NCBI GenBank assembly: GCA_964564695.1
Contig: CAZMCC010000001.1
Coordinates: 2,571-66,570, forward strand
Source: an uncultured Phycisphaeraceae bacterium
Lineage (GTDB): Bacteria > Planctomycetota > Phycisphaerae > Phycisphaerales > UBA1924
Direction: 5' to 3'
DNA length: 64,000 bases
Shown here: one piece after another, positions 8,413 through 42,943 of the stretch
Layout of the letters: every line of letters starts with the position of its first letter
How positions within the stretch are numbered: position 1 is the first letter of the stretch
Translations under genes and position numbers: made by a program
Notes under the pieces: generated by a model
What the model was told of the DNA's origin: nothing
Seen by the model: the letters and a program-made list of their open reading frames with translations, nothing else
The model's database searches: none

Positions 8413-8500
8413 GCGAAGGCCTCCCGCGAACGCATCGAAAGCTCAGGGGCGGACGCCCAGCGGCCGCGCTCGACCGGAGCAAAGCGTCAGGAAGTCTACA

Positions 8501-12506: not shown

Positions 12507-12604
12507 GCGTCGGTCTCCGGTGGCGCGACTTTGCGCGCCGCAGGCCAAGGGTACGCCGGCGTCAGCGGGTCATTCGCCGCCGCTCGGCGTGGCGCTCGCT
12601 GGTT

Positions 12605-13507
12605 TCAGGGGCCCACGTCAACGGGGATGCGTTCCCATTCGAGGAGCGAGGTCGTTCCGCCCCCGGCGAGTCCGGCCCCACGGGGCGCCTGCTCGAGGAG
12701 GCCGGTCCAGCGCCCCTCGTCGGACTCGGCAACGACCCGCCAGAGTGTGGGGGAGGTGGTGAGAAGCTGGGCGATGACGGCGCGGGCCCGCGGCTGGACC
12801 GAGGCCTGGTCGCAGATCCTGGTGAGGTCGGTAGGGCTGAGCTGCCCGTCTTCGCGCTCAGTGATGATGTCTCCCGCAACCATGGTGCTGGCCTCACCGC
12901 CGCCGGCCGCCGCGACGATCGTCACGAGCACATCGAAGTCGGCGGTCAGGGCGCTGACGGCGAGCGGCCCGGCGTCTCTCAGCTTCGGCCGTTCGTACTC
13001 GGGGAGATCGTTTTTATCGTCGCGGGAGGGGCGGTCGACGTGCGCCGGCCGGCGCGGGTCATTGTCGATGGGCTCACCCAGCGACTGCGCGATGGCCTGG
13101 GCGGCCATGCGGGCGGCTTCGAAGGCGGACCCGGATCCGGTGGGGCGGCGGAGGAGCGAGCCCTGGCCGTCCTCCATCCAGACGCGCACCCCGCGCCCGT
13201 TGGGGAGCAGGAGCTCGAAGGCGAGCCCGCCGTCGAGGAGGCGCTCGCCGACGTTGCCGCCGGTGGTGAGGAGCCACTGGTCGATCATTTCCTTGATGCC
13301 CAGGCGGGCGTGGTGCTCGTGGTAGCCGTCGATGCGGCGCTCGACGGCGAGGTGGGCGTTGGCGTGGCGCTCGAGCATGACCAGGGAGGCGATGGTCGCG
13401 ACCATCGCCAGGAGCACGACGATGGGGAGGGCGAACCCCCCCCGGCGGCGAGCGCCGGCGGCGCGTGGGGCGAGCCGTGCGAGCGTGCGTGGGTGTCGGA
13501 GGCTCAT
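12605..13507 (-). CDS. GspK-like minor pseudopilin
   Basis: Internal ATG at 13505-13507 (ATGA overlap with the upstream stop). The N-terminus RRRGGFALPIVVLLAMVATIASLVMLE is a GspK-type hydrophobic segment. The ORF part upstream of this ATG is Arg/Pro-rich and looks non-coding. Confidence 0.55.
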   Translation of the reverse strand: MSLRHPRTLARLAPRAAGARRRGGFALPIVVLLAMVATIASLVMLERHANAHLAVERRIDGYHEHHARLGIKEMIDQWLLTTGGNVGERLLDGGLAFELLLPNGRGVRVWMEDGQGSLLRRPTGSGSAFEAARMAAQAIAQSLGEPIDNDPRRPAHVDRPSRDDKNDLPEYERPKLRDAGPLAVSALTADFDVLVTIVAAAGGGEASTMVAGDIITEREDGQLSPTDLTRICDQASVQPRARAVIAQLLTTSPTLWRVVAESDEGRWTGLLEQAPRGAGLAGGGTTSLLEWERIPVDVGP

Positions 13508-14907
13508 TGGGGGGGGGGGCGGGGCCTCTCGGGGGGCTTGTTCGGCATGCTGCCTTGATTGACGTTTGAGGGCATGCCCGAACGGGGGCGTCCGTTGCTG
13601 CGCCGGCGGCCGTCGTCGGGGGTGCTGTTGCTGTCGCGCCCGGTCTCGCCGGTTGGTGTGCGGGAGCGGTCGGTGACCGATCCGCCGGCGCCGAGGCCGG
13701 CGCCGAGGTTGGCGGCGACCGCGGGCTGGCCGGTGACCGAAGCGATGGAGCCGGGTTCGCCGGAGAGGCCCCAGCCGATCTCGAAGGTCCACTCGTGGCG
13801 GATGCCGCTGTTGGTGTGGATCTCGAGCTCGATATAGCCGGGGAGGTCGTCGGACCACACGGCGGAGTGCTCGCGGAGCCGCTCGGCGTCGTTGCCCTGG
13901 TTGGCGCCGCTCTTCTTGGTGTAGAGCGCGCGCCAGGTGGCGGAGGCGATGTTGCCCATGAGGCGGGTCTGGCCGACGCGCTGGCCGGAGGTGGGTTCGA
14001 GATCAAAGGGCGCGTCGACGACGGGGTAGATCTGGCGCCACCAGAGCACCCAGCCGGGGTGCTGCTCGCGCCCGCCGGCTTCGACGCCGGGGTCGAACTT
14101 GAACTCGAAGGCGCCGCGCACGCCCTGGACGAGCTCGGTGGTGACGCGGTCGTCGCTTTCACTCCGGGGCGAGGAGCCGTCCCTCGGCTCCCCGTTGGAG
14201 CGGTCAAGGTCGGCGTTGTCGGGGCCGCCGGCGGGGCCGCGCCGGGCGGAGAGGGAACGCCGGCGGTTGCGGTTGGAACGCAAGTCGTCGCCGGTGTCCG
14301 CTGCGCCGACGGCGGGGCGGGTGTCGTCGCCCGGGTTGGCGGGGTCGCGGGCGGCGGGGCCGTCGGTGGCGGGGTCGTCGGTGGTGGTGACGGCCACGTC
14401 GGCGCGGTCGCCATCGACGGGGTATCCGAAGTCGGCGAGTTCCTCGACGCTCATGCCACGCTCGACGCCGAAGACAAACAACGGGCGGGTTCGCAGCGCG
14501 ACCTCAAGCCGCTGGGGGTGCATGAGTCCGGCGTTGTTCGACTCGGTGTCGGGCATCACCGGGGGGAGCGCGTCGTCGAGCTCCAGGAGGAGGCGGGGGC
14601 GCTCGGGTTCGCGGTCGTCGTCGGTCGGGGGCTCGGGGCGTTCTTCGCTGCGATCGCGCCCCATGCGGTTGCCCTCGGCGTTGCGTGGCGGGGGCGTGCT
14701 GTTCGACATCGCGAGCCCGCCCACGGCCTTGGTGATGGCCTCGTGCGCGAGCGCCTCGGAGAGCGAGTCGTCGAAGGCCTCCTGGCCGACCCTGTCGGCG
14801 GTCTCGAGCGACGAGAACACCGACACGGCAACGAGCACGACCATCGACCCCAGCACGGCGGCGAGGGCGACTTCGATCAGCGTGAATCCGCGGCGTCCGG
14901 CGCTCAT
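13504..14907 (-). CDS. Unusually large pseudopilin (prepilin-type N-terminal methylation motif), GspJ position
   Basis: The N-terminus MSAGRRGFTLIEVALAAVLGSMVVLVAV carries the G-F-T-L-I-E prepilin motif. It is 467 aa with long Arg/Asp/Pro-rich low-complexity inserts. The start overlaps the upstream stop (ATGA). Confidence 0.65.
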   Translation of the reverse strand: MSAGRRGFTLIEVALAAVLGSMVVLVAVSVFSSLETADRVGQEAFDDSLSEALAHEAITKAVGGLAMSNSTPPPRNAEGNRMGRDRSEERPEPPTDDDREPERPRLLLELDDALPPVMPDTESNNAGLMHPQRLEVALRTRPLFVFGVERGMSVEELADFGYPVDGDRADVAVTTTDDPATDGPAARDPANPGDDTRPAVGAADTGDDLRSNRNRRRSLSARRGPAGGPDNADLDRSNGEPRDGSSPRSESDDRVTTELVQGVRGAFEFKFDPGVEAGGREQHPGWVLWWRQIYPVVDAPFDLEPTSGQRVGQTRLMGNIASATWRALYTKKSGANQGNDAERLREHSAVWSDDLPGYIELEIHTNSGIRHEWTFEIGWGLSGEPGSIASVTGQPAVAANLGAGLGAGGSVTDRSRTPTGETGRDSNSTPDDGRRRSNGRPRSGMPSNVNQGSMPNKPPERPRPPPQ

Positions 14908-15572
14908 CGGCTGCTCCCTGAGGCTGAGGATTGGCTCCCGCTTCCGCTCGAGCGCGAGCGACGACTGGGGCGGGGCAGCGCCTGGGCGGGGGTCGAGCCG
15001 CCGGTCATGCCGCCCGTGAAGGACTGGAGGAGGTCACGCAGGCCCTCGGAGCTGCTCAGGCCGCGGCGCATCGAGTCGGGGTTGCGGGTGATGGCGATGG
15101 GGTCCATCATTCGGGACATGACGGCGAGCTCGGCGCCCTGGGCGAGGGGCCCGCCGCCGGTGTCGACGGTGTCGTAGACGCGGACGGTGACGAGGCGGAA
15201 GCGGTCGGTGCGGAGGTCGGCGCCGCCGCCGCGGGACTCGCGGGGCTTGGTGCGCATCTCCATGTTCGTCTCATCGAGCTTGTAGCGGAAGGTGAACTGG
15301 CCGCCCGCGTAGTCGATGGGGGTGGTCGTGGGCGGCATCTTCTTTTTTTCGTCGAGGTACTGCAGCAGGAGCTTGTGCGCGATCTCGTTGGCGCCGACGA
15401 TCCTGCGGTCCTCGTAGGAGAGCCGCATGATGAGCGAGATGGAGCTCATGGCGGCGACGGTGACGATCGCGAGCAGGGCGACGGCGAGCACGACTTCGAG
15501 CAGCGTCATCCCGGCACGCCGGGTCGGGCCACGGGCGATCCTCACCCGACGTGTCGACCTGAGATGGTGCAT
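14904..15572 (-). CDS. Minor pseudopilin (GspH/I-like)
   Basis: RRAGMTLLEVVLAVALLAIVTVAAMSSI is a prepilin-type N-terminal motif. I chose the ATG at 15570-15572. Confidence 0.6.
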   Translation of the reverse strand: MHHLRSTRRVRIARGPTRRAGMTLLEVVLAVALLAIVTVAAMSSISLIMRLSYEDRRIVGANEIAHKLLLQYLDEKKKMPPTTTPIDYAGGQFTFRYKLDETNMEMRTKPRESRGGGADLRTDRFRLVTVRVYDTVDTGGGPLAQGAELAVMSRMMDPIAITRNPDSMRRGLSSSEGLRDLLQSFTGGMTGGSTPAQALPRPSRRSRSSGSGSQSSASGSSR

Positions 15573-15607
15573 CCGGTCCTCACTGGCGTGGAGTGCGACG
15601 GGCTCGC

Positions 15608-16033
15608 TCAGCCGCCGCTGGGCGCACGGGCGTCGCGGATGTTCCACACGTTCACATCGTCGGCGGTGCCGGCCTGGTTGTCGGCGCCGAGGCTGTACAG
15701 GGTGTAGGGCTTGCCCTGCTCCTGGGCGGGTGTGTAGTAGACGAGCGGGCGTCCCCAGCCGTCGGTCGGAACGGCGTTGATGAGCGGGGGCGTGGAAGTG
15801 ACGAGAGCGTCAAGGGCGGCGGGGTAGGTGCTCGTGCGGGCGTAGAAGGTGCCCAGGGCGGCCTCGAGCTGCGAGAGCTTCACGACGGTGGCGCCGCGTT
15901 TGGCTTCGTCGCTCGAACCACCGATGCTGAAGATCACCACGGTGGCCAGTACGCCGATGATCACGACGACGAGCATCATTTCCAGCAGGGTGAAACCCGA
16001 TGCCCGACGGATGACTTGGTTGGTGCGGCGCAT
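15608..16033 (-). CDS. gspG: Type II secretion major pseudopilin GspG
   Basis: RRASGFTLLEMMLVVVIIGVLATVVI, then KLSQLEAALGTFY...DGWGRPLVYYTP...YTLYSLGADNQAGTADD (GspG signature). ATG at 16031-16033. Confidence 0.85.
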   Translation of the reverse strand: MRRTNQVIRRASGFTLLEMMLVVVIIGVLATVVIFSIGGSSDEAKRGATVVKLSQLEAALGTFYARTSTYPAALDALVTSTPPLINAVPTDGWGRPLVYYTPAQEQGKPYTLYSLGADNQAGTADDVNVWNIRDARAPSGG

Positions 16034-16294
16034 GGGTGTGATACTCCGTGTCTTGAACGAGTGAACAGGCGAATCGCCAAGCGGTGGATCCGCCGGTACT
16101 TTCTGCCGACCCCCGCGGAGAGGTGTTCGCCGCATTGGGGGCCGCGCTCGGCACCACTTTACGCTGCCGCGTGCGGGCCCGCGCGGCAACCTTACGGGTC
16201 ATGATCCGGGGGTGAACGGGGAGAAGGCGGGGGTTTGGCGCGGGTCCGTTTGCGATTTCGGCGGTGATAACGCACGCGGGGCCGCGAGCCGGGA

Positions 16295-17560
16295 TCAGGC
16301 CCCGATTCCCTTGCTCGCCGAGAGGATGGGCAGCAGGATCGAGATCACGAGCGACCCGATGATCGCGAACATGAGCACGATGAGGGCCGGCTCGAGGGCC
16401 GCGAGCAGACGCGACGACGTGCGGTCGACTTCCTCGGCCATGTCGGCCGCGAGGGTGGTGAAGGCGGACTCCATGTCGCCCGCCCGATCGGCGGCGACGA
16501 GCAGGCGGCGCGTGGCGAGCGGGAGCGAGCCCACATCCTCGACGAGCGTGCGGAGGAGCCCGCCGGCGACCAGGCGCTCGCGGAGGCGATCGAGCTGAGC
16601 CCGGAGCTTGGGGTGTGTCACCGCCTGGTTCGAGACGCTCAGGGCCTCGGCCAGGGGCACGCCCGACCGGGTCATCGCGGCCATCACGCTGAAAAATCGG
16701 GTGGATTCCTGCGCAAGCACGAGGCTGCGCAGGCCCGGGAGGCGTCGCATGAGCACGGTCACTGCCGCGATGACGATCTTGTGCAGCAGCAGGGCGACCA
16801 CGAGCACGCCCGCGGCCACGATGCCCATGAGCGTCGCGTTGTCGCGCAGCCACACGCCCGAGCCGATGACGAGCCGGCTGATCATCGGCATCTTCACCTT
16901 CGACGCCATCAGGGCCTCGCCGATCCGCGGGACGACGAACATGAGCATGAAGATCGAGACGAGCACGCTCAGGCTCAGCACGATCAGGGGGTAGATCATG
17001 AGCGTCAGGGCCTTGCCGCGGACCGTCAGCTGGCGACGCGCGGATTCGCTCAGGCGCTTGGCGGCGCCCGAGAGGTCGCCGGTGCGCTCGGCGGCGCGGT
17101 ACACGGCGATGGTGACCTCGTCGAATCCGCCGACGGCGCGGCAGGCGTCGGCGAAGCTCGTGCCGCCCGCCACCATCTCGCGGATGCGGTCGATGCGGGT
17201 GCGTCCGCCGGGGCGGACGGTCGCCGCGACGACTTCGAGGGCTTCGACGAGGGGCACGCCGCGGGAGATGAGCTGGGAAAGCTGCTCGTTAAGGGTGGCC
17301 TGGTCGGTGAGGGTGAGCGTGTAGGCGGGGGCCGCCCAGCCGGGCATGCGGTAGAACTTGAGCAGGAGCAGGCGGTCCTTGCGGAGCATCTCGGCGAGGG
17401 CGCCGGGGCTGCGGGCCTGGCGCAGGCCGAACTTCTTCCCCCCCCCGGGGCCGACGGCCACGTAGAAGAAGGATGAGGGGCCGGCCCGGACGGCCGCGCC
17501 GGGGGCGAGGCCGCCCTGCCCTGGCGTTCTGCTCGTGGACATGAGGCTTGCTCGGGACAT
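16295..17560 (-). CDS. gspF: Type II secretion system protein F (GspF/PilC family)
   Basis: Two GspF-type repeats (LSQLISRGVPLVEALEVV... and FFSVMAAMTRSGVPLAEALSV...) and 3 TM segments. The start is ambiguous (17542, 17560 or 17593). Confidence 0.85.
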   Translation of the reverse strand: MSRASLMSTSRTPGQGGLAPGAAVRAGPSSFFYVAVGPGGGKKFGLRQARSPGALAEMLRKDRLLLLKFYRMPGWAAPAYTLTLTDQATLNEQLSQLISRGVPLVEALEVVAATVRPGGRTRIDRIREMVAGGTSFADACRAVGGFDEVTIAVYRAAERTGDLSGAAKRLSESARRQLTVRGKALTLMIYPLIVLSLSVLVSIFMLMFVVPRIGEALMASKVKMPMISRLVIGSGVWLRDNATLMGIVAAGVLVVALLLHKIVIAAVTVLMRRLPGLRSLVLAQESTRFFSVMAAMTRSGVPLAEALSVSNQAVTHPKLRAQLDRLRERLVAGGLLRTLVEDVGSLPLATRRLLVAADRAGDMESAFTTLAADMAEEVDRTSSRLLAALEPALIVLMFAIIGSLVISILLPILSASKGIGA

Positions 17561-17577
17561 CCGACTAGCGTACTCCC

Positions 17578-18045
17578 ATGGCCAAACGCTCACCGACGCG
17601 CTCCCGCAAGCGGACCGCCCGCTCGAAGGGCAAGATCACCGGCAGCACCTTCGAACTCGCCTGCGGCGGGATCGTTCGTCGGCGCGGCCCCGGCGGGCGC
17701 GACGAGGTTCTGCTGGTCCACCGCGAGAGCTACGACGACTGGTCGTTGCCCAAGGGCAAGTTCGAGCCCCGCGAGGACGCGACGGTGATCGAGTGCGCCA
17801 TCCGGGAGGTTCTTGAAGAAACCGGGGTCCGCGCTCGGGTGTCGGGGTTCGCCGGGCAGACCATGTACATGAAGAACGGGCGTCCCAAGCTGGTGCTGTT
17901 CTGGGACATGGCGTTCAAGCGGGCCGCGAAATTCACGCCCAACGACGAGATCGCCGGGATTGCCTGGCTTGCCACGAAGGCGGCCCTGAAGCGGCTGACG
18001 CACGAGGACGAACGGAATGTGCTGGCGGCGGCTGTGGGGAAGTAG
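17578..18045 (+). CDS. NUDIX hydrolase
   Basis: Nudix box GKFEPREDATVIECAIREVLEETGV (G-x5-E-x7-REUxEExGU). Confidence 0.8.
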   Translation: MAKRSPTRSRKRTARSKGKITGSTFELACGGIVRRRGPGGRDEVLLVHRESYDDWSLPKGKFEPREDATVIECAIREVLEETGVRARVSGFAGQTMYMKNGRPKLVLFWDMAFKRAAKFTPNDEIAGIAWLATKAALKRLTHEDERNVLAAAVGK

Positions 18046-18187: not shown

Positions 18188-19294
18188 ATGACGACTCGAA
18201 CCCTCGGTGCGCTCGCGGCCTGCCTCGCTGTCCAGTCGGCTCTCGCGGGTCCGCTCGATCCGCCGCCGGGGCCGATCACGTCGACGCTCAAGCCGCTGAC
18301 GGAGGTCGAGCCGCGCCTGGCGATCAACTCGTACTACACGCCCGGCGATTTCGACAGCCTCTTCAAGATCACGCAGCCGGGGTCGTACTACCTCACGGCC
18401 GACGTGGCGGGCGTGGTGAACAAGCACGGCATCGAGGTGGCGCTCGTCGCGCCCGGGGCCGTGACGATCGATCTCAACGGGTTCAGCGTCAAGGGCGTGG
18501 CCACTTCGCTGAGCGGGATCGTCGACAGCACGGGGTACGTCGTGCTGCATGTGCGCAACGGCACGGTGAACGGCTGGCCCGGCATCGGCGTTGACGGGGC
18601 CCAGACGGTCGATCGCCTCGTCGTCGCGGGCAACGGCGCCCTGGGCATCTACGCGCAGGCGGCCGCGACCGTGACCAACTGCATCGTCTCGGCCAATGGC
18701 GCCAACGGGGGCTACGGCGTCGACGCCGGGCCGGGGTCGATCATCGCCGACTGCATCGTGCAGTTCAACGGCGGCACGAGCGGCGGGGGCGGCATCGCCG
18801 CCGGCGACAATTCGCAGGTCCGCCGCTGCACGGTCACGTCGAACGCGGCGGCGCTCTCGGCGGCCATGGGGTTCGGGATCTATGTCGGGTACGACTGCGA
18901 CGTCGCCGATTGTCGCGTCGACAACAACGGTTCAGGGGCGTCGACCTCGAGCTCCGGCATCAACGCGGGCGAGGGCACGAGCGTCACGGGGTGCCGGCTG
19001 TACGGGAACTTCGGCGGGGGCATCCGGTCGGGCGGCGAGGGGATCATCTCGGGGAACGCCGTGGGGTATTCGAACGGCATCGGGATCATCATCGCCGGCA
19101 ACCGGGCGCGGGTGGAGGCGAACCACCTCTTCAGCAATTCGTCGGGCGGCGTGCGGGTGGAGGGTACGGGGTGCACGGTGGTGCGCAACTCGGTGAAGGG
19201 CACGTCGCCGTACTCGATCCCGGGCGGGAACGACGCGGGTCCGGTGGGCACGGCGGCGACGGCGACGAGCCCGTGGTCGAACATCGCGAACTGA
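18188..19294 (+). CDS. Secreted parallel beta-helix repeat protein, GPLDPP family copy 1
   Basis: Signal peptide MTTRTLGALAACLAVQSALA, then GPLDPPPGPITSTLKPLTEVEPRLAINSYYTPGDFDSLFKITQPGSYYLT and VTIDLNGFSV. About 21-aa PbH1-like repeats with a periodic Cys (NCIVSANGANGGYG, DCIVQFNGG, RCTVTSN, DCRVDNN). The C-terminus is the ATSPWSNIAN variant. Confidence 0.8.
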   Translation: MTTRTLGALAACLAVQSALAGPLDPPPGPITSTLKPLTEVEPRLAINSYYTPGDFDSLFKITQPGSYYLTADVAGVVNKHGIEVALVAPGAVTIDLNGFSVKGVATSLSGIVDSTGYVVLHVRNGTVNGWPGIGVDGAQTVDRLVVAGNGALGIYAQAAATVTNCIVSANGANGGYGVDAGPGSIIADCIVQFNGGTSGGGGIAAGDNSQVRRCTVTSNAAALSAAMGFGIYVGYDCDVADCRVDNNGSGASTSSSGINAGEGTSVTGCRLYGNFGGGIRSGGEGIISGNAVGYSNGIGIIIAGNRARVEANHLFSNSSGGVRVEGTGCTVVRNSVKGTSPYSIPGGNDAGPVGTAATATSPWSNIAN

Positions 19295-19410
19295 GTGGCG
19301 GCCCCGGGGCGTCGTCTCGGGGCCGGCAAGAGTTCCTTTCGTAGATTCTTCATTGTCATACCCCCTCATCGCCTGTACATTCACAGCGTCCCGCGAGGAG
19401 AGGCGACGCA

Positions 19411-20583
19411 ATGGACAGCGCGTTTTGTAGCCGAGGGCTGGCGGCCCTTACCCAGCTTGCCATCGCCATGTGCCTGCTGGGCGGCCCCCTTGACCCACCG
19501 GCGGGTCCGATCGCGCCAACGCCGGGGTCCGAGCCCCGGATCGCGATCAACGCCACGAACACTCCCGGAGACGCCGACAGCCTCTTCAAGGTCACCCAGC
19601 ACGGGTCCTACTACCTCGCTGTTCCGATCACCGGCGTCGCCGGCAGGAGCGGCATCGAGATCGCCACGTCCAACGGCGTCACGATCGACCTCATGGGGTA
19701 CTCGCTCCAGGGCGTCGCGGGCTCGTTCCACGGCATCTCCACCTCCGGCGTGCACGGGCTCATCATCATCCGCAACGGCTGGGTCGGCGGGTGGGGCTCC
19801 CACGCCATCGAACTGAATGGGGGCTTCACCGGCGAGGTCTCGACCGTCGAGAACGTCCACGTCATGTATAACGGCGGATGGAGCGTTCGCGCCGCGACCC
19901 GGGCCACGATCCGCGATTGCGTGGCGTCCGGCAACGCCGTCGGCTTTCAGGCCCAGCAGCACTCGCTCATCGTCCGGTGCACCGCGCGCAACAACAACGG
20001 GACCGGGACCCAAGCCGGGTCGACGGTCTCCGAGTGCGTCGCCGACGCCAACCTGCGTGGGTTCAGCTTCAGCGGGGGGAGCACCGCCATCGGCTGCACC
20101 GCGGCCAACAACGTCAACGACGGCTTCGAAGTCTCCGGCGCCGTCCTCACCTCGTGCGCCGCGAACAACAACGGGGGGAGCGGGTTCGCCTGCGGCAACG
20201 GCTGCACCATCGACAACTGCGTGGCCTACAGCAACACCAGCCACGGCATCTCCCGTGAATCGAGCTGCGTCATCCGCAACAACCTCGCGAACCTGAACGG
20301 GAACTCGTCGGGCAGCGGCGCGAACATCCGTGTTGCCCAGGGGTCCAACCGCGTCGAAGGGAACAACTGCATCGGCGGCGACTGGGGGATCCAGGCGCTG
20401 GGCGCGGGGAACGTCATCGTCCGCAATACCTGCCGCGGGAACACGCTGAACTGGAGCATCGCGGCCAACAACGTCGTCGTCCCCATCATCAACCGGACCG
20501 CGCCGGCGAGCGGCGCCATCAGCGGCGATTCCGGGCCGAGCTCGCTGGGCTCGACCGATGCGAACGCGAACTACACATATTGA
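19411..20583 (+). CDS. Secreted parallel beta-helix repeat protein, GPLDPP family copy 2
   Basis: GGPLDPPAGPIAPTPGSEPRIAINATNTPGDADSLFKVTQHGSYYLA. Repeats DCVASGN, RCTARNN, ECVADAN, GCTAANN, SCAANNN, NCVAYSN. C-terminal module NRTAPASGAISGDSGPSSLGSTDANANYTY. Confidence 0.8.
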   Translation: MDSAFCSRGLAALTQLAIAMCLLGGPLDPPAGPIAPTPGSEPRIAINATNTPGDADSLFKVTQHGSYYLAVPITGVAGRSGIEIATSNGVTIDLMGYSLQGVAGSFHGISTSGVHGLIIIRNGWVGGWGSHAIELNGGFTGEVSTVENVHVMYNGGWSVRAATRATIRDCVASGNAVGFQAQQHSLIVRCTARNNNGTGTQAGSTVSECVADANLRGFSFSGGSTAIGCTAANNVNDGFEVSGAVLTSCAANNNGGSGFACGNGCTIDNCVAYSNTSHGISRESSCVIRNNLANLNGNSSGSGANIRVAQGSNRVEGNNCIGGDWGIQALGAGNVIVRNTCRGNTLNWSIAANNVVVPIINRTAPASGAISGDSGPSSLGSTDANANYTY

Positions 20584-20608
20584 CCGTCAATTCCGAAGGA
20601 GGACATCC

Positions 20609-21844
20609 ATGCACCGTTTCGCTGCCCTTGTCGCACTTGTCTGTGCCTGCACTCTCGCCCTCGCCGGCCCGCTCGACCCCCCCGCGGGTCCGATCGCGCC
20701 CACCGCCAAACCCCTTGCCGAGGTTGAGCCGCGGATCGCGATCAACGCGACGAACACGCCCGGCGACGCGGACAGCCTCTTCAAGATCACCCAGCCGGGC
20801 TCGTACTACCTCACTGGAAACATCACCGGCGTCGCCGCCAAGAGCGGGATCGAAATTGACGCCCCCCGCGTGACCATCGACCTCAACGGGTTCACGCTCG
20901 CCGGCGTCGCCGGATCCCTTGACGGCATCGTCACCTCCACCAACAACAGCCAGATCGTCATCCGTAACGGCTCGTTCACAGGCTGGGGCGGCAGCGGCAT
21001 CAATTTCCCGGGCGTCACGTCGATGGGCGTCGTAGAGGCCGTCACGTCCGTCAACAACGGCGACGCCGGCATCCGTGCCGGAACGTCGTTTTCGCTCTTA
21101 CACTGCTCGGTCCGGAGCAACGGCGGCATCGGCATCGATGCCGGTATCTACAGCACCCTGATCAACTGCTCGGCGTCTTTCAATGACGGCGCAGGCATCA
21201 ACGCCAGTTCGGCTTCGACACTGATCAACTGTTCCTCGGCGAACAACAGTGTCGGATTTGATATCGGCGCCGGCTGCACGCTCTCCAATTGCTCCGCGAT
21301 CAGCAGCGACGGCTTCGGGTTCGTGACAGCGCAGGGGTGCACGCTTTCCGCCTGCGGCGCCTGGAACAACCAGGGCGGCGGGTTCAACGTCGATACCGGC
21401 GGGACCGTCACCCATTGCACATCGCACCAGAACGTCGGCATCGGCATCATCGCCGGCGCTGCCAGCAAGATCACCGACTGCACGGTCTCGAGCAACAACC
21501 TCGACGGCATCTCTGTCTCCAGCGACTGCCATGTGCGGGGCAACACCAGCGACAGCAATGGCGCGGGGACCACCGACGGCGCCGCCATCCAGGTCACCGG
21601 AAGCGACAACCGCATCGAGGGCAACAACTGCACGGACTCCGACCGCGGCATCGATGTGGACGTCGCCGGCAACGTCATCATCAGGAACACCTGCTCGGGC
21701 AACACCATCAACTGGACGATCGCGGCCAACAACGTCTGCGGCCCCATCCTCAACCGCACCGCCCCCGCCAGCGCCGCCATCAGCGGCGACTCGGCTCCCA
21801 GCTCGCTGGGCTCCACCGACGCGAACGCGAATTACACGTACTGA
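20609..21844 (+). CDS. Secreted parallel beta-helix repeat protein, GPLDPP family copy 3
   Basis: An RBS (ggagga, 20597-20602) precedes the ATG at 20609. MHRFAALVALVCACTLALAGPLDPPAGPIAPTAKPLAEVEPRIAINATNTPGDADSLFKITQPGSYYLTGN. At least six consecutive 21-aa repeats (INCSASFNDGAGINASSASTL and so on). C-terminus NRTAPASAAISGDSAPSSLGSTDANANYTY. Confidence 0.85.
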   Translation: MHRFAALVALVCACTLALAGPLDPPAGPIAPTAKPLAEVEPRIAINATNTPGDADSLFKITQPGSYYLTGNITGVAAKSGIEIDAPRVTIDLNGFTLAGVAGSLDGIVTSTNNSQIVIRNGSFTGWGGSGINFPGVTSMGVVEAVTSVNNGDAGIRAGTSFSLLHCSVRSNGGIGIDAGIYSTLINCSASFNDGAGINASSASTLINCSSANNSVGFDIGAGCTLSNCSAISSDGFGFVTAQGCTLSACGAWNNQGGGFNVDTGGTVTHCTSHQNVGIGIIAGAASKITDCTVSSNNLDGISVSSDCHVRGNTSDSNGAGTTDGAAIQVTGSDNRIEGNNCTDSDRGIDVDVAGNVIIRNTCSGNTINWTIAANNVCGPILNRTAPASAAISGDSAPSSLGSTDANANYTY

Positions 21845-21934
21845 CGTTCAGCCTCACCCCCCGGTTGTGGGGCTTGCGGCCGGCGCGCTGGCGCGGTAGG
21901 TTCCGACCGCCCAATCGCCCAGGGAGATTGAGAG

Positions 21935-22954
21935 ATGAAGACGTCCCCGTCCATTGGCCGCGCGATCGTCGCGCTCCTGCTCGCGCCCGTCGCTGCCCTC
22001 GCGGGCCCGCTCGATCCGCCCGCCGGTCCGATCGCGTCGACCGCCAAGCCGCTCGCCGAGGTCGAACCGCGGACGGTCGTGAACGCGACGAACACTCCGG
22101 GCGACGCCGATGCGAGCCCGAGCCTGTTCAAGATCACGCAGAGCGGCTCGTATTACCTCACCGGCAACGTCACCGGCGTTTCCGGCAAGATCGGGATCGA
22201 GATCGACGCCGACTCGGTCACGCTCGATCTCTGCGGGTTCGAGCTGCGGGGCGTCGCGGGCACGCTCGACGGCGTCCGTGTGACGCCCGGCCGGCGCGCC
22301 GTCACCGTTCGCAACGGCTCGCTGAAGGGGTGGAAGGGCGCCGCCGTCAACGCCGTGGGCGGACCCAACGCCGACGCCTGCCTGTACCAGGACCTGCGGG
22401 CCGTCGACAACGGCACCGACGAATTCAGCTACATCATCGACGTCGGCGGCGCGAGCACCGTCGTGAACTGCGTCGTCGCGTTCAACGCCGGCACCGGCAT
22501 CCGGGGCAACAACGGCACGCTCATCAGCGGCTGCGCCGTCAGCAGCAACTCCGGCGACGGCATCATCTGCGGCGCGGGGACCGTCAAAGACTGCCTCGCC
22601 CGCGGCAACGTGTTCGACGGCATCCGCGCCGGGGCCGCGTCGGTGATCACCGGTTGCTCGGCGACCGCGAACAGCGGCGCCGGGATCACCATCCACGACG
22701 CCACCATTGCTCGCGACAACGCGTGCCTGGGCAACGGCTGGGGCATCTATATCTACAGCGACGGGAGCACCGCCGACGGAAACACCCTCGCGGGCAACGC
22801 CGTGGGCGTCGAGATCGTCGACCCCGGCAACGTGTTCACGCGCAACACGCTGCGGGGCAACACCGTGCGCGACACGGTCGTTGCGGGCAACGACGTCGGG
22901 CCGTTCCAGTCTGCGGCGACGTCGATGAGCCCGTGGGCGAATCTGGCGCCCTGA
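21935..22954 (+). CDS. Secreted parallel beta-helix repeat protein, GPLDPP family copy 4
   Basis: ALAGPLDPPAGPIASTAKPLAEVEPRTVVNATNTPGDADASPSLFKITQSGSYYLTGN. It has a shorter core and the C-terminal variant SAATSMSPWANLAP, as in copy 1. Confidence 0.8.
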   Translation: MKTSPSIGRAIVALLLAPVAALAGPLDPPAGPIASTAKPLAEVEPRTVVNATNTPGDADASPSLFKITQSGSYYLTGNVTGVSGKIGIEIDADSVTLDLCGFELRGVAGTLDGVRVTPGRRAVTVRNGSLKGWKGAAVNAVGGPNADACLYQDLRAVDNGTDEFSYIIDVGGASTVVNCVVAFNAGTGIRGNNGTLISGCAVSSNSGDGIICGAGTVKDCLARGNVFDGIRAGAASVITGCSATANSGAGITIHDATIARDNACLGNGWGIYIYSDGSTADGNTLAGNAVGVEIVDPGNVFTRNTLRGNTVRDTVVAGNDVGPFQSAATSMSPWANLAP

Positions 22955-23027
22955 CGCGCGGCCGTAGAGGCCCATTGTGCGGCGCAGCCATCGTGGTACA
23001 TTGACCGCACGCCCGAGGAGGTGCCCA

Positions 23028-24122
23028 ATGTGCCGTGCGCGTCGTGCTGTCGTCGTCGCCGCCCTTGCCGCGCTTGTCCCGTGTTCCCAGCTTCACGCCG
23101 GCCCGCTCGACCCGCCGCCTGGCCCGATCGCGTCCACGCCAAAGCCGCTTGCCGAGCTCGAACCGCGCATCGCTATCAATTCGACGAACACCCCCGGCGA
23201 CGCCATCAGCGTCTTCCGGATTCCGGGGTGCGGGTCGTACTACCTCACCTCCAACGTCGCGGGTCAGCCCGGCAAGCACGCCATCTTCGCTCCCGCGTTC
23301 CCCGGCGGAGGCGAGGTCACTATCGATCTCAACGGCTTCACACTCACCGGTGTGCCGGGGTCGCTCAACGGCGTCAACGCCGCGGGCACCGTCAACGTCC
23401 GCAACGGCGCCGCCAATCTCTGGGGCGGTGCCGGGATCAGCGTCTCGCGCGGCATCCTCCGCGACCTTCACGTCTCCACCAACGCCGGGCACGGCCTGGT
23501 CGCGAACTGGGGCGTCGTCATCTCGCACTGTGTCGCGGAGGGCAACGGCGCTAACGGCATCCACGTCTCCGACGTCTCGCGCATCGAGTCGTGCGTCTCG
23601 AAGGTCAACACCGGCGAGGGCATCCACCTCGACGGGGCCGGCACCGTTGCCGATTGCGTCGTGTACAACAACGCCGCCGGCGGCATCATCGCCGGCCTCG
23701 CCTCGCAGGTCACGGACGGCACCGTCTTCTCGGTCCCGACCGACGCGATCCGCGTCTCGCACGGCTCGAGCGTGGCCCGAAACTCGATCGCGTCCGCGGG
23801 CGTCGGCGTCCGTGTCACCGGCGATGCGTGCCGCATCGAGGCCAACTCGGTGGTGTTCGGCGTCGTCGGCATCCGCATCGAGAGCGCGGGGTCGCGCGTC
23901 GAGGGCAACTCGGTGAGCCGCGGCGGCACGGGGATCAGCGTGTCACCGGGCGTCGGCAACATCATCGTCCGCAACACCTGCTCGGGGAACACGACGAACT
24001 GGGACGTCGTCGCCGGGAACATCTGCCTGGTCGTGCAGGCGGCGGTAAGCGGGGCGGTCAGCGGCAACGCCGGGGGCGTCCCCCTGGGCTCGACCGACCC
24101 GAACGCCAACTTCACCCACTGA
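23028..24122 (+). CDS. Secreted parallel beta-helix repeat protein, GPLDPP family copy 5
   Basis: RBS gaggagg at 23015-23021, ATG at 23028. MCRARRAVVVAALAALVPCSQLHAGPLDPPPGPIASTPKPLAELEPRIAINSTNTPGDAISVFRIPGCGSYYLT. C-terminus SGNAGGVPLGSTDPNANFTH. Confidence 0.8.
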   Translation: MCRARRAVVVAALAALVPCSQLHAGPLDPPPGPIASTPKPLAELEPRIAINSTNTPGDAISVFRIPGCGSYYLTSNVAGQPGKHAIFAPAFPGGGEVTIDLNGFTLTGVPGSLNGVNAAGTVNVRNGAANLWGGAGISVSRGILRDLHVSTNAGHGLVANWGVVISHCVAEGNGANGIHVSDVSRIESCVSKVNTGEGIHLDGAGTVADCVVYNNAAGGIIAGLASQVTDGTVFSVPTDAIRVSHGSSVARNSIASAGVGVRVTGDACRIEANSVVFGVVGIRIESAGSRVEGNSVSRGGTGISVSPGVGNIIVRNTCSGNTTNWDVVAGNICLVVQAAVSGAVSGNAGGVPLGSTDPNANFTH

Positions 24123-25372: not shown

Positions 25373-26743
25373 ATGCGCATTGAGCGGCCGCCATTGACAT
25401 TTGAGCAAGCGTTTGATCGGCCCTCGCCGGTCGTCGGCGATGCGGAGTCTGGTGCGGTTGCTCGCCTGCTTGCCGATTACCGCCCATGGCGGAAAACCAG
25501 GTACGCCGCGGCGGAACTGGGTTTGGATCCTGAGACGGCCTGGTTGCTCACGAAGCGTGCACGATTCCCCATGTTTCGCCGGGTGAGCCTGCCGCGGGCG
25601 GAGGGGGGGCGCTTCGGTCTGACACACACCCCACAGATGGCCGAATCGCTCCTGCTCATCGACAGAAGCACCGGCGTGGTCGGCACGCCGAGGGTCCGGC
25701 AGAACCTCACGCTGCACAAGCGGCTGCTCGCCCTTGCCAAGGACGGCCAGCTCACCGCCCCCCGGCGGGTCCGCACGGACATGGAGGAAGCCGCGGAGTC
25801 GGCGATCATCGAAGGTGCGTCCGGTACGCGCCAGGAGGCGATCGAACTCCTGCGCTCCGGACGTCGACCGAAGTCGATTTCAGAGCGCATGGTCATCAAC
25901 AATTACATGACCATGCAGCGTATCAAGGAGCTGGTGGACACCCCGCTCAGCCCGGCGCTGATCCTTGAGCTTCAAGAGTTGATCACTGAGGGCACTCTCG
26001 ACGACCCGGCGGAGGCTGGGCGCTTTCGGCGGGCCGAACAACCGGTCCGCATCGTCGATACTCGGGACGAAACGGTCATCTTCGAGCCGCCTCACGCCGC
26101 GCTCGTTGTTGACTACGTGACACGCCTCTGCAAATTCGCCAACACGGACCACGCGGGCGCCGACTTCCTTCATCCCGTTATCAAGGCGGCGATTCTCCAC
26201 TTCATGATCGGATACATCCATCCGTTTGCGGACGGCAACGGGCGCACCGCGCGGGCGATGTTCTACTGGTTCGCCCTCCGACATGGGTACACGCTCTTCG
26301 AGTACCTTTCCATCTCTGAAGTCATCCGCAAGGGTTACGCGCGTTACCCACAGGCGTACGTCGACGTTGAAACGGACGACGGTGACCTGACGTATTTCGT
26401 CCTGTACAAGTTGGACATCATCTCGCAGGCGCTGGACCGGCTTGCGGAAAAGCTCGCTCTGGACGCCGAGAAGATCAAGCTCAGCGAGCGACTGCTCGCA
26501 CTGGCGGAAGGGCTCAATCTCCGGCAGCGACTCCTCTTGGAACATTCCCTCCGCCACCCGCTTACGCAGTACACGGTCAAGACCCACGCAAACTCGAATG
26601 GCATCGTTCTCACCACGGCGCGTGCCGACCTCGAGCAGCTTGTCATTCTCAAACTTCTCGCCACCGCCAAGCGAGGCAAGGAAGTCATCTATATGGCCAC
26701 GCCCAAGCTCACCCAGAGGCTCGCCGCCAAGAGGCTGGTCTGA
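25373..26743 (+). CDS. Fic family protein (class II arrangement: N-terminal inhibitory motif, Fic core, C-terminal wHTH-like region)
   Basis: Fic active-site motif HPFADGNGRTAR at 26219-26254. Upstream [ST]xxxE[GN] motif SAIIEG at 25799-25816. Two hand-counted 60-nt lines give about 57-58% GC, against about 70% in the surroundings. Confidence 0.85.
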   Translation: MRIERPPLTFEQAFDRPSPVVGDAESGAVARLLADYRPWRKTRYAAAELGLDPETAWLLTKRARFPMFRRVSLPRAEGGRFGLTHTPQMAESLLLIDRSTGVVGTPRVRQNLTLHKRLLALAKDGQLTAPRRVRTDMEEAAESAIIEGASGTRQEAIELLRSGRRPKSISERMVINNYMTMQRIKELVDTPLSPALILELQELITEGTLDDPAEAGRFRRAEQPVRIVDTRDETVIFEPPHAALVVDYVTRLCKFANTDHAGADFLHPVIKAAILHFMIGYIHPFADGNGRTARAMFYWFALRHGYTLFEYLSISEVIRKGYARYPQAYVDVETDDGDLTYFVLYKLDIISQALDRLAEKLALDAEKIKLSERLLALAEGLNLRQRLLLEHSLRHPLTQYTVKTHANSNGIVLTTARADLEQLVILKLLATAKRGKEVIYMATPKLTQRLAAKRLV

Positions 26744-26894: not shown

Positions 26895-27596
26895 TCAGCT
26901 CCGGCGACGCCGGACAGCGACCAGCCCGCCCAAGCCGAGCAGGGCCGCGGCACCGGGAGCGGGAACCTCGCGGACAGAGATTTCCACGTTGTCGATGCCC
27001 CAGGATTCATCGAGCCCACCCTGCCAGCCAGAGCCGGCGGCGATGAAGTCGATCGTGGCGGTGGAGCCCGTGTGCGGGATGTTCTGCAGCAGCGGCTCAA
27101 GGGTCATGTCGTACGCCTTCTCGCCCCAACTGCCGTTCCAGCCGACGCTGCCGCCGGAGTAGATCAGCCCGGCGGGGACCGCGGGGACGTAGTTCGTGCT
27201 TCCGCTGGCGATGGCGAATGTGGCCTGGAAGACCTGGGTGCCGTCGACCCAGACCTGGAAGTAATCGGGAGCCGGGCTGCCGTTGTCGCTGTCCCACGAG
27301 TCGATCGCCGCGAGCAGGAACCCGACCGAGATCGAGCTGTGCGCCGGGAGCGAACTCAGGCTCAGCGTGGACGCCACCGCCGGGCCGACCGAGTCGTTCC
27401 GCAGCAGGTTGCCGCCAAACAGGTTCGGGGGGTTGCCCATGCCGGTGAACCCGGCGACGGACTCGGCCGTGCCGGCCCCGCTGAACTGGGCCGGGATGCC
27501 GCTGTCAAAGTTGTTGGAGAACACCGTGGTCTGGGCCGTCGCCGTCAACGCACAGACGGCAACCGTCGCCATCCCGATCAGGCTCACGCACTTCAT
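26895..27596 (-). CDS. PEP-CTERM sorting-domain secreted protein
   Basis: Signal peptide MKCVSLIGMATVAVCALTATAQT. C-terminus VPAPGAAALLGLGGLVAVRRRRS (VPAP + TM + Arg cluster, the PEP-CTERM architecture). Confidence 0.75.
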   Translation of the reverse strand: MKCVSLIGMATVAVCALTATAQTTVFSNNFDSGIPAQFSGAGTAESVAGFTGMGNPPNLFGGNLLRNDSVGPAVASTLSLSSLPAHSSISVGFLLAAIDSWDSDNGSPAPDYFQVWVDGTQVFQATFAIASGSTNYVPAVPAGLIYSGGSVGWNGSWGEKAYDMTLEPLLQNIPHTGSTATIDFIAAGSGWQGGLDESWGIDNVEISVREVPAPGAAALLGLGGLVAVRRRRS

Positions 27597-27891: not shown

Positions 27892-28566
27892 ATGCGTACC
27901 ACCCTCGCGCTGGCCCTCTTTGGCGCCATCGCCGCGTCCGCCTCCGCCCAGCCGTTCTCGAACGTTCGGGACGACCACAAGTTCGCCTGGGGCGAGAACA
28001 TCGGTTTCCTCAACTGGCGCGACGCCGGCAGCGACGTTGAGGGTGTTCGCATCCGGTTCACCTACGGCGGCTTCATGGACGGGTACATCTGGGGCGAGAA
28101 CGTCGGCTGGATCAAGACCGGCAACGGCAACCCCGGCCCGTACGCCAACACCAACAACACCAACTACGGCGTCAACATCAATCTCACGACCGGCAATCTC
28201 AGCGGCTTCGCCTGGGGTGAGAACATCGGCTGGATCAACTTCAGCGGCGGCGCCCTCGCCACCCCAGCGAACCCCGCCCGCGTCGATTTCGTGACCCGGC
28301 GCCTCCGCGGCTACGCCTGGGGCGAGAACGTCGGCTGGATCAACCTCGACAACGCGACCGTCTTCGTCGCCATGTTCTGCCTCACCGACATCAACCAGGA
28401 CGGGATCTCGAACTCCACCGACGTCGGCGAGTTCATCAACCTCTGGTTCCAGGATCAGGTCAAGGGCAGCCTGCAGGCCGACTTCGACGGCAACGGGATC
28501 GTGAACTCCACCGACGTCGGCGAGTTCATCAACGCCTGGTTCAGCGATCAGCTCAACTGCATCTGA
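27892..28566 (+). CDS. Secreted protein with four WGEN(I/V)GW(I)N repeats and a C-terminal dockerin-like tail
   Basis: ATG at 27892 gives MRTTLALALFGAIAASASAQ (signal peptide). Repeats FAWGENIGFLNW, YIWGENVGWIKT, FAWGENIGWINF, YAWGENVGWINL. C-terminus DINQDGISNSTDVGEFINLWF...DFDGNGIVNSTDVGEFINAWF. Confidence 0.75.
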   Translation: MRTTLALALFGAIAASASAQPFSNVRDDHKFAWGENIGFLNWRDAGSDVEGVRIRFTYGGFMDGYIWGENVGWIKTGNGNPGPYANTNNTNYGVNINLTTGNLSGFAWGENIGWINFSGGALATPANPARVDFVTRRLRGYAWGENVGWINLDNATVFVAMFCLTDINQDGISNSTDVGEFINLWFQDQVKGSLQADFDGNGIVNSTDVGEFINAWFSDQLNCI

Positions 28567-28758
28567 GTCGCCTCGCGGCGGCACCACTCGATTTGGTGGA
28601 TTTGCCGCGGTGCATGTGCGCGTTTGCGCGCAGGTTTGTGAACATACCAGACCGTTTGTTCCCGCCGCATTGAGTGGTGCGCGGGGTTGGGGTATCTTGT
28701 CGCTCTTGCGTGCCGTGACGCTCGCGCCCGTGTCCCACCGAACACAGGAGCCGTGCGC

Positions 28759-30327
28759 ATGTCGAGCAAGACGGTCGTCACGAACTATTCCGCCTTCACC
28801 GCGAAGTACGGGGCCGCGGGGGTCAAGCGTCTCAAGCAGGCGGTCACCCGCCTGGTCGCGGCCGACAAGAAGCGGGGCCTGACGACCCGCGTCGCCGATC
28901 TCTCGAACGCCGCCAACATGAAGGCGGCCGGCGGGAAGAAGGTCGATGATCCGCAGGACCGCAAGGCGTGCAAGGCGGCCGTCGACGCGATCTTCCGCAA
29001 GACGCGTCCGGACTACCTCATGCTTCTGGGTTCGGTCGACGTCGTCCCGCACCAGGACATGGACAACCCCTTCGCCGGGGGTGACGACGACCCCACTGTG
29101 CCGGGCGACCTGCCGTACGCCTGCGAGGAGCCGTTCAGCACGCGCACCGAGAAGTTCAAGGGCCCGACGCGCGTCGTCGGGCGCCTCCCCAACGTCACCG
29201 GCGACACGACCCCCGACTACCTCATCGGCCTGCTCGACTCCGCGGCGACCTTCGTCAAGCGCCCGCACAGCGACTACGCCTCGTACCTCGGCCTGACCGC
29301 CGAGGCGTGGGACGCCTCGACGCGCGAAAGCCTCGCGAACATCTTCGGCTCGGCCGACACCATCCAGGGCATTCCCCCGCACGGGCCCGCCTGGGCCGAC
29401 GACATGCTCGGGGCCCGCTGCCACTTCGTGAATTGCCATGGGGCCGACACCGTGGCCGAGTTCTACGGCCAGCCGCGGGGCCGAAACCAGTACCCCATCG
29501 CTCACGAGGCCCGTCGCGTCGTCGGCAAGCTCAGCCAAGGCACGATCGCCGCGGTCGAGTGCTGCTACGGCGGCCAACTCTACAACCCCGAGCCCGCCGG
29601 CGTGCACGCCTCGATCGTCAATACCTACCTCGGGCACGGGTGCTGCGGCTATTTCGGCGCGACCACCATCGCCTATGGCCCGGCGGAGGGCCAGGGCGCG
29701 GCCGATCTCATCTGCCAGTTCTTCATCAAGAACATCCTCAACGGCGCTTCCACCGGACGCGCAGCGCTGATGGCCCGCCAGCAGTTCGTGCAGGCCGCGG
29801 GCACCCTCGACCCGGCCGACGTGAAGACGCTCGGCCAGTTCAACCTGCTGGGCGACCCCTCGGTGCACCCGGTCGAGGCGCCGCCAACGGGGGCCGGCGG
29901 CTCCGAACCGAAGCTGATGAAGGCCGCGGCCGGTATGGCCGGCGCCAAGAGCATGGGCGCCCCGGACCTCCTGCGGACCCTTCGACGCGCCGAGCTGGTC
30001 GACATCGGCCTGCGCCTGGCGAACTCGGCGGCGGCCGCGATGTCGGTAGCGTCCAAGATGCCCGGCGGGCCGATCGTCAAGGCGATGGCGGCCCTCGCCC
30101 ACGCCTCGGGCATCCTCGACCCCAAGTTCATGAGCTTCAAGACCGACGCCCCGGCGCCCAGCGCCTGGTACGCCAAAAGCAAGATGGCCGAGACTCCCAC
30201 GCCCGAGTTCCACGCGGCGGTGGGCCAGGTGGACGCCCCGGACGCCCCATCGGCCCAGTTTTCGGCGGTGGTGGCGACGGTGCTCGAGGGCAAAGTGGTG
30301 AGCGCCCGGCAGCTCTACAGTCGGTGA
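28759..30327 (+). CDS. Peptidase C25 (gingipain)-like clan CD cysteine peptidase homolog, no signal peptide
   Basis: RBS aggag at 28746-28750, ATG at 28759. C25-type landmarks: DYLMLLGSVDVVP, VVGRLP, putative catalytic His227 (FVNCHGAD, codon 29437-29439), Cys268/269 (AAVECCYGG, 29560-29565) and QFNLLGDPSVHP. An unassigned tail of about 170 aa follows. Confidence 0.55.
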   Translation: MSSKTVVTNYSAFTAKYGAAGVKRLKQAVTRLVAADKKRGLTTRVADLSNAANMKAAGGKKVDDPQDRKACKAAVDAIFRKTRPDYLMLLGSVDVVPHQDMDNPFAGGDDDPTVPGDLPYACEEPFSTRTEKFKGPTRVVGRLPNVTGDTTPDYLIGLLDSAATFVKRPHSDYASYLGLTAEAWDASTRESLANIFGSADTIQGIPPHGPAWADDMLGARCHFVNCHGADTVAEFYGQPRGRNQYPIAHEARRVVGKLSQGTIAAVECCYGGQLYNPEPAGVHASIVNTYLGHGCCGYFGATTIAYGPAEGQGAADLICQFFIKNILNGASTGRAALMARQQFVQAAGTLDPADVKTLGQFNLLGDPSVHPVEAPPTGAGGSEPKLMKAAAGMAGAKSMGAPDLLRTLRRAELVDIGLRLANSAAAAMSVASKMPGGPIVKAMAALAHASGILDPKFMSFKTDAPAPSAWYAKSKMAETPTPEFHAAVGQVDAPDAPSAQFSAVVATVLEGKVVSARQLYSR

Positions 30328-38498: not shown

Positions 38499-38634
38499 GC
38501 TTTATCGCTCGGGACACCAATGTCATCGCCGACACGCGCAGGCGCACGACGGTGCGCCTGCGCGTCGTTGGTGCGCGGGCCTGCGTGTATGCTCAAGTGT
38601 CGGGGGACGGCGGCACGCAAGGAACCGTGCGATC

Positions 38635-38928
38635 ATGGCGATGCGTTGTCAGACTCTCGGATTCCTTGGGTTGTTCGCCGCCTCGGCCGTCCCGGCGGTC
38701 GCCGGACCGCTCGACCCGGCCCCCGGCCCGATCGTTCCGACGTACAAGTCGCTCACCGATGTCGAGCCGCGGGTAGCGATCAGCGCGACGAACACGCCGG
38801 GTGACTCCGACTCGCACGTCAAGATCACCCAACCGGGGTCGTATTACCTCGGGGGCAATTCAGCCTGTGCTCGACGGAGAAGTGCGTCGTCGGCTTCGCC
38901 GGCGCCACCGTCCCGTCGGGCTGCGTGA
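38635..38928 (+). pseudogene. N-terminal remnant of a GPLDPP-family beta-helix gene (copy 7)
   Basis: MAMRCQTLGFLGLFAASAVPAVAGPLDPAPGPIVPTYKSLTDVEPRVAISATNTPGDSDSHVKITQPGSYYLGGN matches the family for about 72 codons. Similarity then ends abruptly near 38851, and the frame runs into Arg/Ser/Ala junk before a stop at 38928. Confidence 0.65.
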
Positions 38929-39051
38929 GTTGCTGAGTCTGGCCTCGAGACTCCTTACCCGAACGTTCGTACGGGGCGCGCGCCATTGCGGCCCCCCTCG
39001 TTATCGGGTATGCTGCGCGCGGACCACGCCGTGTTGAGGAGGAGACTCGAA

Positions 39052-42755: not shown

Positions 42756-42943
42756 GGCGTCGCCCCTAAGTGCTGTGCCGAACAGGTGTTGAGATTGCGT
42801 CTCATGTTGAAAACGACCCGTCCAGCGGCTTGACAGGATACCTCTTGCCCCATGAGGATTCTTGTTGCGTAGAAGGTTGTGCGCTCAGACAGGAATTCCC
42901 GTCCGGAAACCCCGTTTTCGGGCCACCGACCGCGATCGAGGGC

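Follow-up and report, generated by a model that had tools for sequence, protein, structure and literature searches.

Conserved ends and variable coils in a tandem array of secreted beta-helix paralogs from a Phycisphaeraceae bacterium, and its linkage to a dockerin-bearing WGENxGW-repeat protein

The window analysed is a 64,000-nucleotide stretch of contig CAZMCC010000001.1 from an uncultured Phycisphaeraceae bacterium, and between its positions 18188 and 24122 five open reading frames (ORFs) follow one another on the plus strand, each coding for a secreted protein with a predicted parallel beta-helix core. The gaps between them (c1 to c5) are 116, 25, 90 and 73 nucleotides (nts), the last shrinking to 22 nts if a GTG at 22977 starts the fifth gene, which would then encode 381 amino acids (aa). 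Public gene calls on identical contigs agree with the boundaries of the five array genes and take the 364-aa start for the fifth. All five find one another in tblastn searches at E values of 1e-37 to 1e-97 (c3 with c1, 1e-51; c3 with c2, 1e-97), and the paralogs within the window are 31–50% identical. The same search located a second locus, at 37314-40449, with two full copies (c6 and c8) and a truncated one. The window total of seven full copies and one fragment agrees with the eight copies counted in an initial annotation of this DNA. The truncated copy is likely a pseudogene remnant, and is evidence for birth-and-death turnover of the family. A scan for promoters and terminators gave counts at shuffle expectation and is uninformative on operon structure.

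Every copy opens with a basic, hydrophobic leader that ends in A-x-A, or a similar triplet, immediately before an invariant GPLDPPxGPI, and which from its sequence is a probable Sec signal peptide cut by signal peptidase I. Averaged over all pairs of the seven full copies, sequence identity is 68% in the N-terminal module (N-module), 43% in the next coils and 30% in the core, and stands at 42% in the C-proximal coils. The core is 128 to 243 aa long. Gaps in the alignment come in units of 21–22 or 42–43 residues and so correspond to whole coils, in line with the earlier proposal that lengths differ by gain and loss of coils. The tail GSTDxNANFxx is at the C-terminus of c2, c3 and c5 (a C-terminal module had been noted in three of the five) and also of c6 and c8; c1 and c4 end with SPWxNxxx instead. 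A Cys at the same position in each coil had been reported as a general feature. This is clear in c3, where the ladder occupies residues 166/187/208/228/249/270/291/341/362, and in c2, c6 and c8, but in c1, c4 and c5 it is shorter (3–5 Cys), so the ladder is real and uneven between copies. The mature proteins are acidic (isoelectric point 4.3–6.2), and 50–55% of their residues are Gly, Ser, Thr, Asn or Ala.

The core belongs to a known superfamily. Pfam PF13229 (Beta_helix) matches c3 at 49.1 bits (E 6e-13) and c4 at 47.8 bits (cutoff 25.9), PF05048 (NosD) matches c5 at 34.4 bits (cutoff 23.6) and the TIGR03804 repeat passes in c3, c4 and c5; c1 and c2 are below the Pfam thresholds. Paralog c3 is identical to the public protein P0001, and its AlphaFold model, a monomer built with a 50-sequence alignment, has a predicted local distance difference test (pLDDT) score of 88.9 and a predicted template modelling (pTM) score of 0.84. 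Strands in regular triplets, repeating every 21 residues, run through the model from about residue 56 to 371, pointing to a three-stranded right-handed parallel beta-helix (solenoid); residues 20–40 and 380–411 have low model confidence. Top Foldseek matches with c3 are all beta-helices. Together tblastn, alignment, Pfam and AlphaFold uphold the original description of five same-strand secreted beta-helix paralogs with conserved ends and a core variable in both length and sequence. With the PbH1/CASH-type families (PF13229, PF05048 and TIGR03804) the array proteins have in common the repeat motif N-x-I-x-G-N ... G-I, the 21–22-residue coils and the predicted fold. In contrast, their N-tail and cap (GPLDPPxGP...EVEPR...GSYYLTGN), their ‘...DPxANFxY’ tail and their Cys-ladder core are outside the curated models. 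As had been suspected, neither the N- nor the C-terminal module is represented in a curated family of Pfam or NCBIfam. Identity with NosD itself was rejected: the proteins score 12–13.5 bits against TIGR04247 (cutoff 300), and the neighbours in the window are nudix, type II secretion system (T2SS), tdh and Fic genes, with no nos genes beside the arrays.

The family is not unusual in abundance, and its proteins are already public under a generic name. A whole-protein search gave at least 2,982 90%-identity clusters at E≤1e-5; the named ones are almost all from Phycisphaerae metagenome-assembled genomes, and the sole names carried are “right-handed parallel beta-helix repeat-containing protein” or “hypothetical”. 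An 84-residue N-module profile, scored against 1.84 billion representatives, matches 9,714 50%-identity clusters when the limit is E≤1e-3, or 4,096 when it is E≤1e-10, and among the best matches listed the N-module nearly always begins 20–45 residues from the N-terminus. Arrays are common in metagenome-assembled genomes of Phycisphaerae: same-strand sets of 1 to 15 copies occur in 74 genome loci, and 244 N-modules were counted over 76 loci. In the core coils of 185 members, conservation is limited to the C, A/S, N, G and I positions. Scores of 0.7–0.99 are reached in the N-tail and cap, in the final three or four coils and at the extreme C-terminus (“LGSTDPNANFTY”). About two thirds of member C-termini are xANF/Y and about one sixth the PWxN variant, most others being close variants of the xANF/Y tail. 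A few proteins of 500–980 aa carry two to four units; P0005 and P0086, for example, are natural single-chain fusions of two. In P0241 and P0270, which come from other lineages, are about 980 aa long and end with RYLMP, an ‘EPRT...GSYYLTGN...VTLDLNGF’ cap opens each of four units; in P0047 the N-tail is replaced by a domain of about 150 aa, ‘FTYQGRL...’. Therefore the cap module has been shuffled between architectures. No description of the beta-helix family was found in literature on Phycisphaerae beta-helix proteins, Phycisphaerae dockerins and GC-type dockerins. The terminal modules, the minimal Cys-ladder core, the class-wide tandem arrays and the partner protein considered below seem not to have been described before, as far as the searched libraries and literature show.

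The conserved ends are maintained at the protein level. At conserved four-fold codons of the N-module, the third positions are identical at a rate of 0.50, where codon usage alone would give 0.49. Synonymous sites have thus reached saturation, and what preserves the ends is protein-level selection and not gene conversion, which the same figures rule out as their source. No long identical DNA tracts or inverton-like repeats were found. Recent coil slippage is ruled out by the lack of tandem DNA repeats of coil length (63 nts), and invertible or cassette switching was rejected for want of convincing inverted repeats, the longest being 29 nts with 72% complementarity. Because of the saturation, the ratio of nonsynonymous to synonymous substitution (dN/dS) is not computable among the window paralogs and was measured on the c3 ortholog pair alone. 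Compared with a 78%-identical gene at a related locus, L080, the Nei-Gojobori ratio along the protein is 0.15 (N-module), 0.21, 0.35 (core), 0.27 and 0.17 (C-tail). Saturation and the low ratio at the ends together place the ends under purifying selection. The core is under weaker constraint, and overall not under positive selection, in this single pair. The hypervariable core initially claimed does not hold in the sense of diversifying selection, since 0.35 against 0.15–0.17 at the ends amounts to relaxed constraint. Copy number in the relatives, which it had been suggested should be surveyed, does vary, as seen at L080 and at a second related locus, L081. At L080 the c3 ortholog is directly after the c1 ortholog and c2 is missing.

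Clustering of the non-family ORFs around arrays revealed a group of partner genes encoding secreted proteins of about 220 aa, in which four WGENxGW(I)N(F) repeats precede a dockerin-like tail with Gly-Cys at its end. The partner in the window, missed in the initial annotation, is 3.7 kb downstream of the array. In 20 of 74 related loci the partner gene is directly after the array on the same strand, and homologs were seen at L006, L015, L029, L037, L072, L081 and others. The reciprocal test took 38 partner loci in metagenome contigs with at least 1.5 kb of upstream sequence: a family gene is immediately upstream in 18, within 4 kb in four more and immediately downstream in three (25 in all). 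The link between array and partner is strong but not obligate. At L081, where the partner directly follows the array, nudix is followed by two copies, tdh, two divergent copies, the partner and a C25 peptidase; the window has nudix, then five copies, tdh, Fic, a PEP-CTERM-like gene, the partner and C25. The gene frame is syntenic between the two while family content turns over, and the synteny (nudix-array-tdh-array-partner-C25 at L081) makes the window’s partner part of the same ancestral locus.

The C-terminus of the partner, a duplicated Ca-loop segment, matches Pfam Dockerin_1 at 24.0 bits (cutoff 22.9) and the cellulosomal dockerin structure 2y3n_B at E 3.7e-4. Against the GC-type dockerin model NF041540 it scores 26.9 bits (cutoff 29); the window protein ends ‘...NCI’ where most homologs end ‘GC’. 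For the repeat domain neither Pfam nor NCBIfam has a family. Its AlphaFold model is confident (pLDDT 85) and beta-rich, with no Foldseek match in the Protein Data Bank (PDB; best E 0.64), and the predicted WGENxGW repeat fold is apparently new. Searching with the whole partner, dockerin tail included, gave 4,481 matches at E≤1e-3, most of which carry the annotation ‘hypothetical’. Fusion of the beta-helix to a dockerin or a WGENxGW repeat is seen in none of 223 family ORFs, and no dockerin-like tail was present in the family proteins taken from public databases. Many other secreted proteins near arrays share the same duplicated dockerin tail, mostly with a terminal Gly-Cys; there are 73 such ORFs in 37 loci, examples being at L015, L034, L037, L044, L046, L049 and L072, and in the window at 6157-8442 on the minus strand. 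Phycisphaerae appear to use this C-terminal dockerin module very widely.

We infer, with a probability of roughly 0.4, that these proteins are a secreted, surface-tethered and mainly non-catalytic repertoire of ligand-binding beta-helices, glycans being the most plausible ligands and the WGENxGW/dockerin protein being the tether. The repertoire would be specific to Phycisphaerae lineages and would consist of Sec-exported, monomer-sized right-handed beta-helices on one chassis, with the conserved N-tail and cap at one end and canonical PbH1 coils plus the ‘...DPxANFxY’ tail at the other. Between the ends are 6 to about 12 minimal coils of 21–22 residues, in which only inward or turn residues (Cys, Asn, Gly, Ile) would be kept and solvent-facing ones free to change. 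The variable coil faces may bind different extracellular ligands, most plausibly glycans, and the conserved ends may serve a job common to all paralogs, namely folding and capping as well as a connection to machinery that all of them use. The WGENxGW-repeat protein is the likeliest candidate for such machinery, and its putative GC-type dockerin would anchor the complex at the cell surface. Both the minimal coils and the lack of any tested enzyme motif count for a non-catalytic role, and the acidic, Gly/Ser/Thr/Asn/Ala-rich composition of the mature proteins also counts in favour of the repertoire. The N-tail (20–40) and C-tail (380–411) of c3 show high conservation together with low model confidence, a combination typical of interaction motifs. 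Paralogy, signal peptides, predicted fold, the pattern of conservation, selection on the ends, array turnover and the genetic link to the partner all have computational support; ligand binding, lack of catalysis, location at the surface and contact between array proteins and partner are what we infer. A more specific version, rather unlikely in our estimate, has the tails (the proline-rich GPLDPPxGP... at the N-terminus and ...DPxANFxY-COOH) as docking peptides for the tryptophan-rich, new-fold WGENxGW domain, in an undescribed, modular and non-cohesin display system fixed at the surface by the dockerin. If true, such a docking system would give Phycisphaerae a single adaptor on which different ligand-binding beta-helices could be exchanged.

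Several observations weigh against a tethered binding repertoire. The partner family is also found away from arrays (L077, L079 and about a third of the 38 reciprocal loci) and in small tandem sets of its own, and many arrays are without a partner; the linkage could thus reflect co-regulation of the secretome and not contact. The low pLDDT of the tails could instead mean oligomerisation, which is invisible to a monomer model. The dN/dS comparison is of one gene pair, and the fold neighbours of c3 are mostly enzymes.

This last point bears on the most probable of the alternatives, which we regard as possible but unlikely: that the proteins are secreted polysaccharide-active enzymes (lyases, hydrolases or epimerases) of an undescribed CAZy-like family, in which the variable coils set specificity and the catalytic site is in the C-proximal coils (NRIEGN / DRGID / IIRNTC). 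Phycisphaerae are known polysaccharide degraders, those coils hold conserved R, E and D, and the best structural neighbours of c3 are the AlgE4 and AlgE6 epimerases, the K1 capsule lyase, the PL6 alginate lyase and tailspike depolymerases. However, template modelling (TM) scores to these neighbours are 0.3–0.47 in the PDB and at most 0.59 in BFVD, values of a generic fold and of no specific family. The conserved polar residues fall within the standard PbH1 motif matched by TIGR03804, and coils of 21–22 residues leave little room for the long cleft-building loops of known beta-helix enzymes. A PDB sequence search with the family profile found no relative and no solved enzyme, the sole match being an artificial repeat protein. 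The AlgE motif YG[FI]DPH[DE] and the motif sets of GH28 (NTD, DD, GHG, RIK) and PL1 (WiDH) are absent in all seven copies, where the isolated single catalytic-motif matches are one GHG and one [GQ]DD.

What the array proteins have in common with the beta-helix polysaccharide enzymes and tailspikes (the AlgE4 A-module, K1 lyase, P22 and CBA120 tailspikes, PL6) is a fold class and the principle of surface variants on one scaffold, a resemblance that as modelled is at the generic fold level only. The initial annotation had compared the proteins with tailspikes and polysaccharide lyases. That comparison survives for the fold and fails beyond it, given the minimal 21-residue coils, the absence of the tested catalytic motifs and the PHROG search, in which none of the seven copies had a match at E≤0.01. 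Identity as a phage tailspike or depolymerase was rejected on the latter result and on the flanking genes, which where annotated by Pfam are cellular. Unlike phage tailspikes, the array proteins have Sec signal peptides and not virion-attachment domains.

Less probable again is that the proteins assemble as subunits into an extracellular fibre, sheath or surface layer, with the conserved ends being head-to-tail or oligomerisation interfaces and the variable middles merely exposed. The solenoid ends and both tails are indeed the most conserved parts, the two-unit fusions (P0005, P0086) and the proteins with two to four N-module-like units (P0241, P0270) are as expected of such assemblies, and the many co-oriented, closely spaced genes suggest stoichiometric co-expression. 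Against it, copy number ranges from 1 to at least 15 between genomes and varies among close relatives, which is unusual for a defined structure, and the proteins are without known anchoring signals. It is highly improbable, and largely refuted, that the arrays are an evolutionary by-product of recent duplication, end gene conversion or coil slippage, or remnants of prophage tailspikes, with no repertoire function: for this there are the tandem organisation, the truncated copy and direct DNA repeats at gene ends (63–85% identity), and against it the N-module synonymous sites at codon-usage expectation, the divergence of the paralogs and the retention of the same end modules in thousands of clusters class-wide, as well as the results already given for 63-nt repeats, PHROG and flanking genes.

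Two known systems invite comparison with the tethered repertoire proposed. The chlamydial Pmp proteins are a paralogous beta-helix surface repertoire within the Planctomycetes-Verrucomicrobia-Chlamydiae (PVC) superphylum (PMC10715098). The likeness is that both are enlarged families of paralogous, secreted beta-helical proteins from PVC-group bacteria whose passenger surface varies. However, the array proteins are much smaller, have no autotransporter barrel (by Pfam) and contain 0–2 FxxN and no GGA[ILV] motifs each. A dockerin-based surface complex, the ‘planctosome’, has been hypothesised for freshwater Phycisphaerae, not with these proteins (PMC6461901). The partner’s dockerin, in its matches to Dockerin_1 and to cellulosomal dockerin structures, resembles those of cellulosome-type systems and of the proposed planctosome. 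The difference from cellulosome-type systems is that the beta-helix proteins themselves are without dockerin or cohesin (0 of 223 ORFs), and any docking would be via the WGENxGW domain.

Members of the Phycisphaerae occur widely, in soils, sediments, lakes and wastewater, and hardly any have been cultured. With 9,714 N-module clusters and arrays of up to 15 genes, the family is one of the bigger groups of secreted proteins in this class that lack an explanation. The defined chassis, the protein-level selection on its ends and the partner with its dockerin and apparently new repeat fold turn a generic annotation into a testable model of a variable binding surface. For curators there are two uncovered modules to model, the N-tail/cap and the WGENxGW domain.

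Table 1. Positions in the window of the beta-helix paralogs, the partner gene and neighbouring genes.
Feature	Position	Strand	Remarks
Paralog c1, 368 aa	18188..19294	+	Signal peptide, N-module, longer irregular coils; C-terminus SPWSNIAN
Paralog c2, 390 aa	19411..20583	+	C-terminus GSTDANANYTY; nearest paralog c3 (50%)
Paralog c3, 411 aa	20609..21844	+	AlphaFold-modelled copy; 9-Cys ladder
Paralog c4, 339 aa	21935..22954	+	Shortest core (128 aa); C-terminus SPWANLAP
Paralog c5, 364 aa	23028..24122	+	C-terminus GSTDPNANFTH
Paralog c6, 394 aa	37314..38498	+	Second locus
Truncated copy	38635..38931	+	Between c6 and c8; signal peptide and N-module to GSYYLGGN, then unrelated sequence and stop
Paralog c8, 465 aa	39052..40449	+	Second locus; longest core (243 aa)
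Partner, 224 aa, secreted	27892..28566	+	Four WGENxGW repeats (27988, 28090, 28213, 28318); C-terminal dockerin, putatively GC-type
T2SS/pseudopilin operon	~11590-17593	-	GspC-like, N-methyl pseudopilins, GspG, GspF; divergent from array
Nudix gene	17578-18045	+	Between T2SS operon and array
Fic-domain gene	25373-26743	+	
PEP-CTERM-like gene	26895-27596	-	
Peptidase_C25 (gingipain-like)	28642-30327	+	Directly downstream of partner

A link with the T2SS operon was considered and rejected: across 154 related loci there is no GspF or GspG homolog, and the adjacency is incidental. The Fic and PEP-CTERM-like genes are where L081 carries two further beta-helix copies. The bin at 26–28 kb, spanning the last part of Fic, the PEP-CTERM-like gene and the beginning of the partner gene, has a G+C content of 0.628, below that of neighbouring bins, and this suggests replacement or insertion of the Fic/PEP-CTERM-like stretch. 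The position of the C25 peptidase is kept in L081, with 78% identity. Downstream of the second locus, at 41319-50338, are unrelated respiratory genes, encoding a CtaA/COX15-like protein, a multihaem cytochrome c and a 4Fe-4S protein of 1,279 aa.

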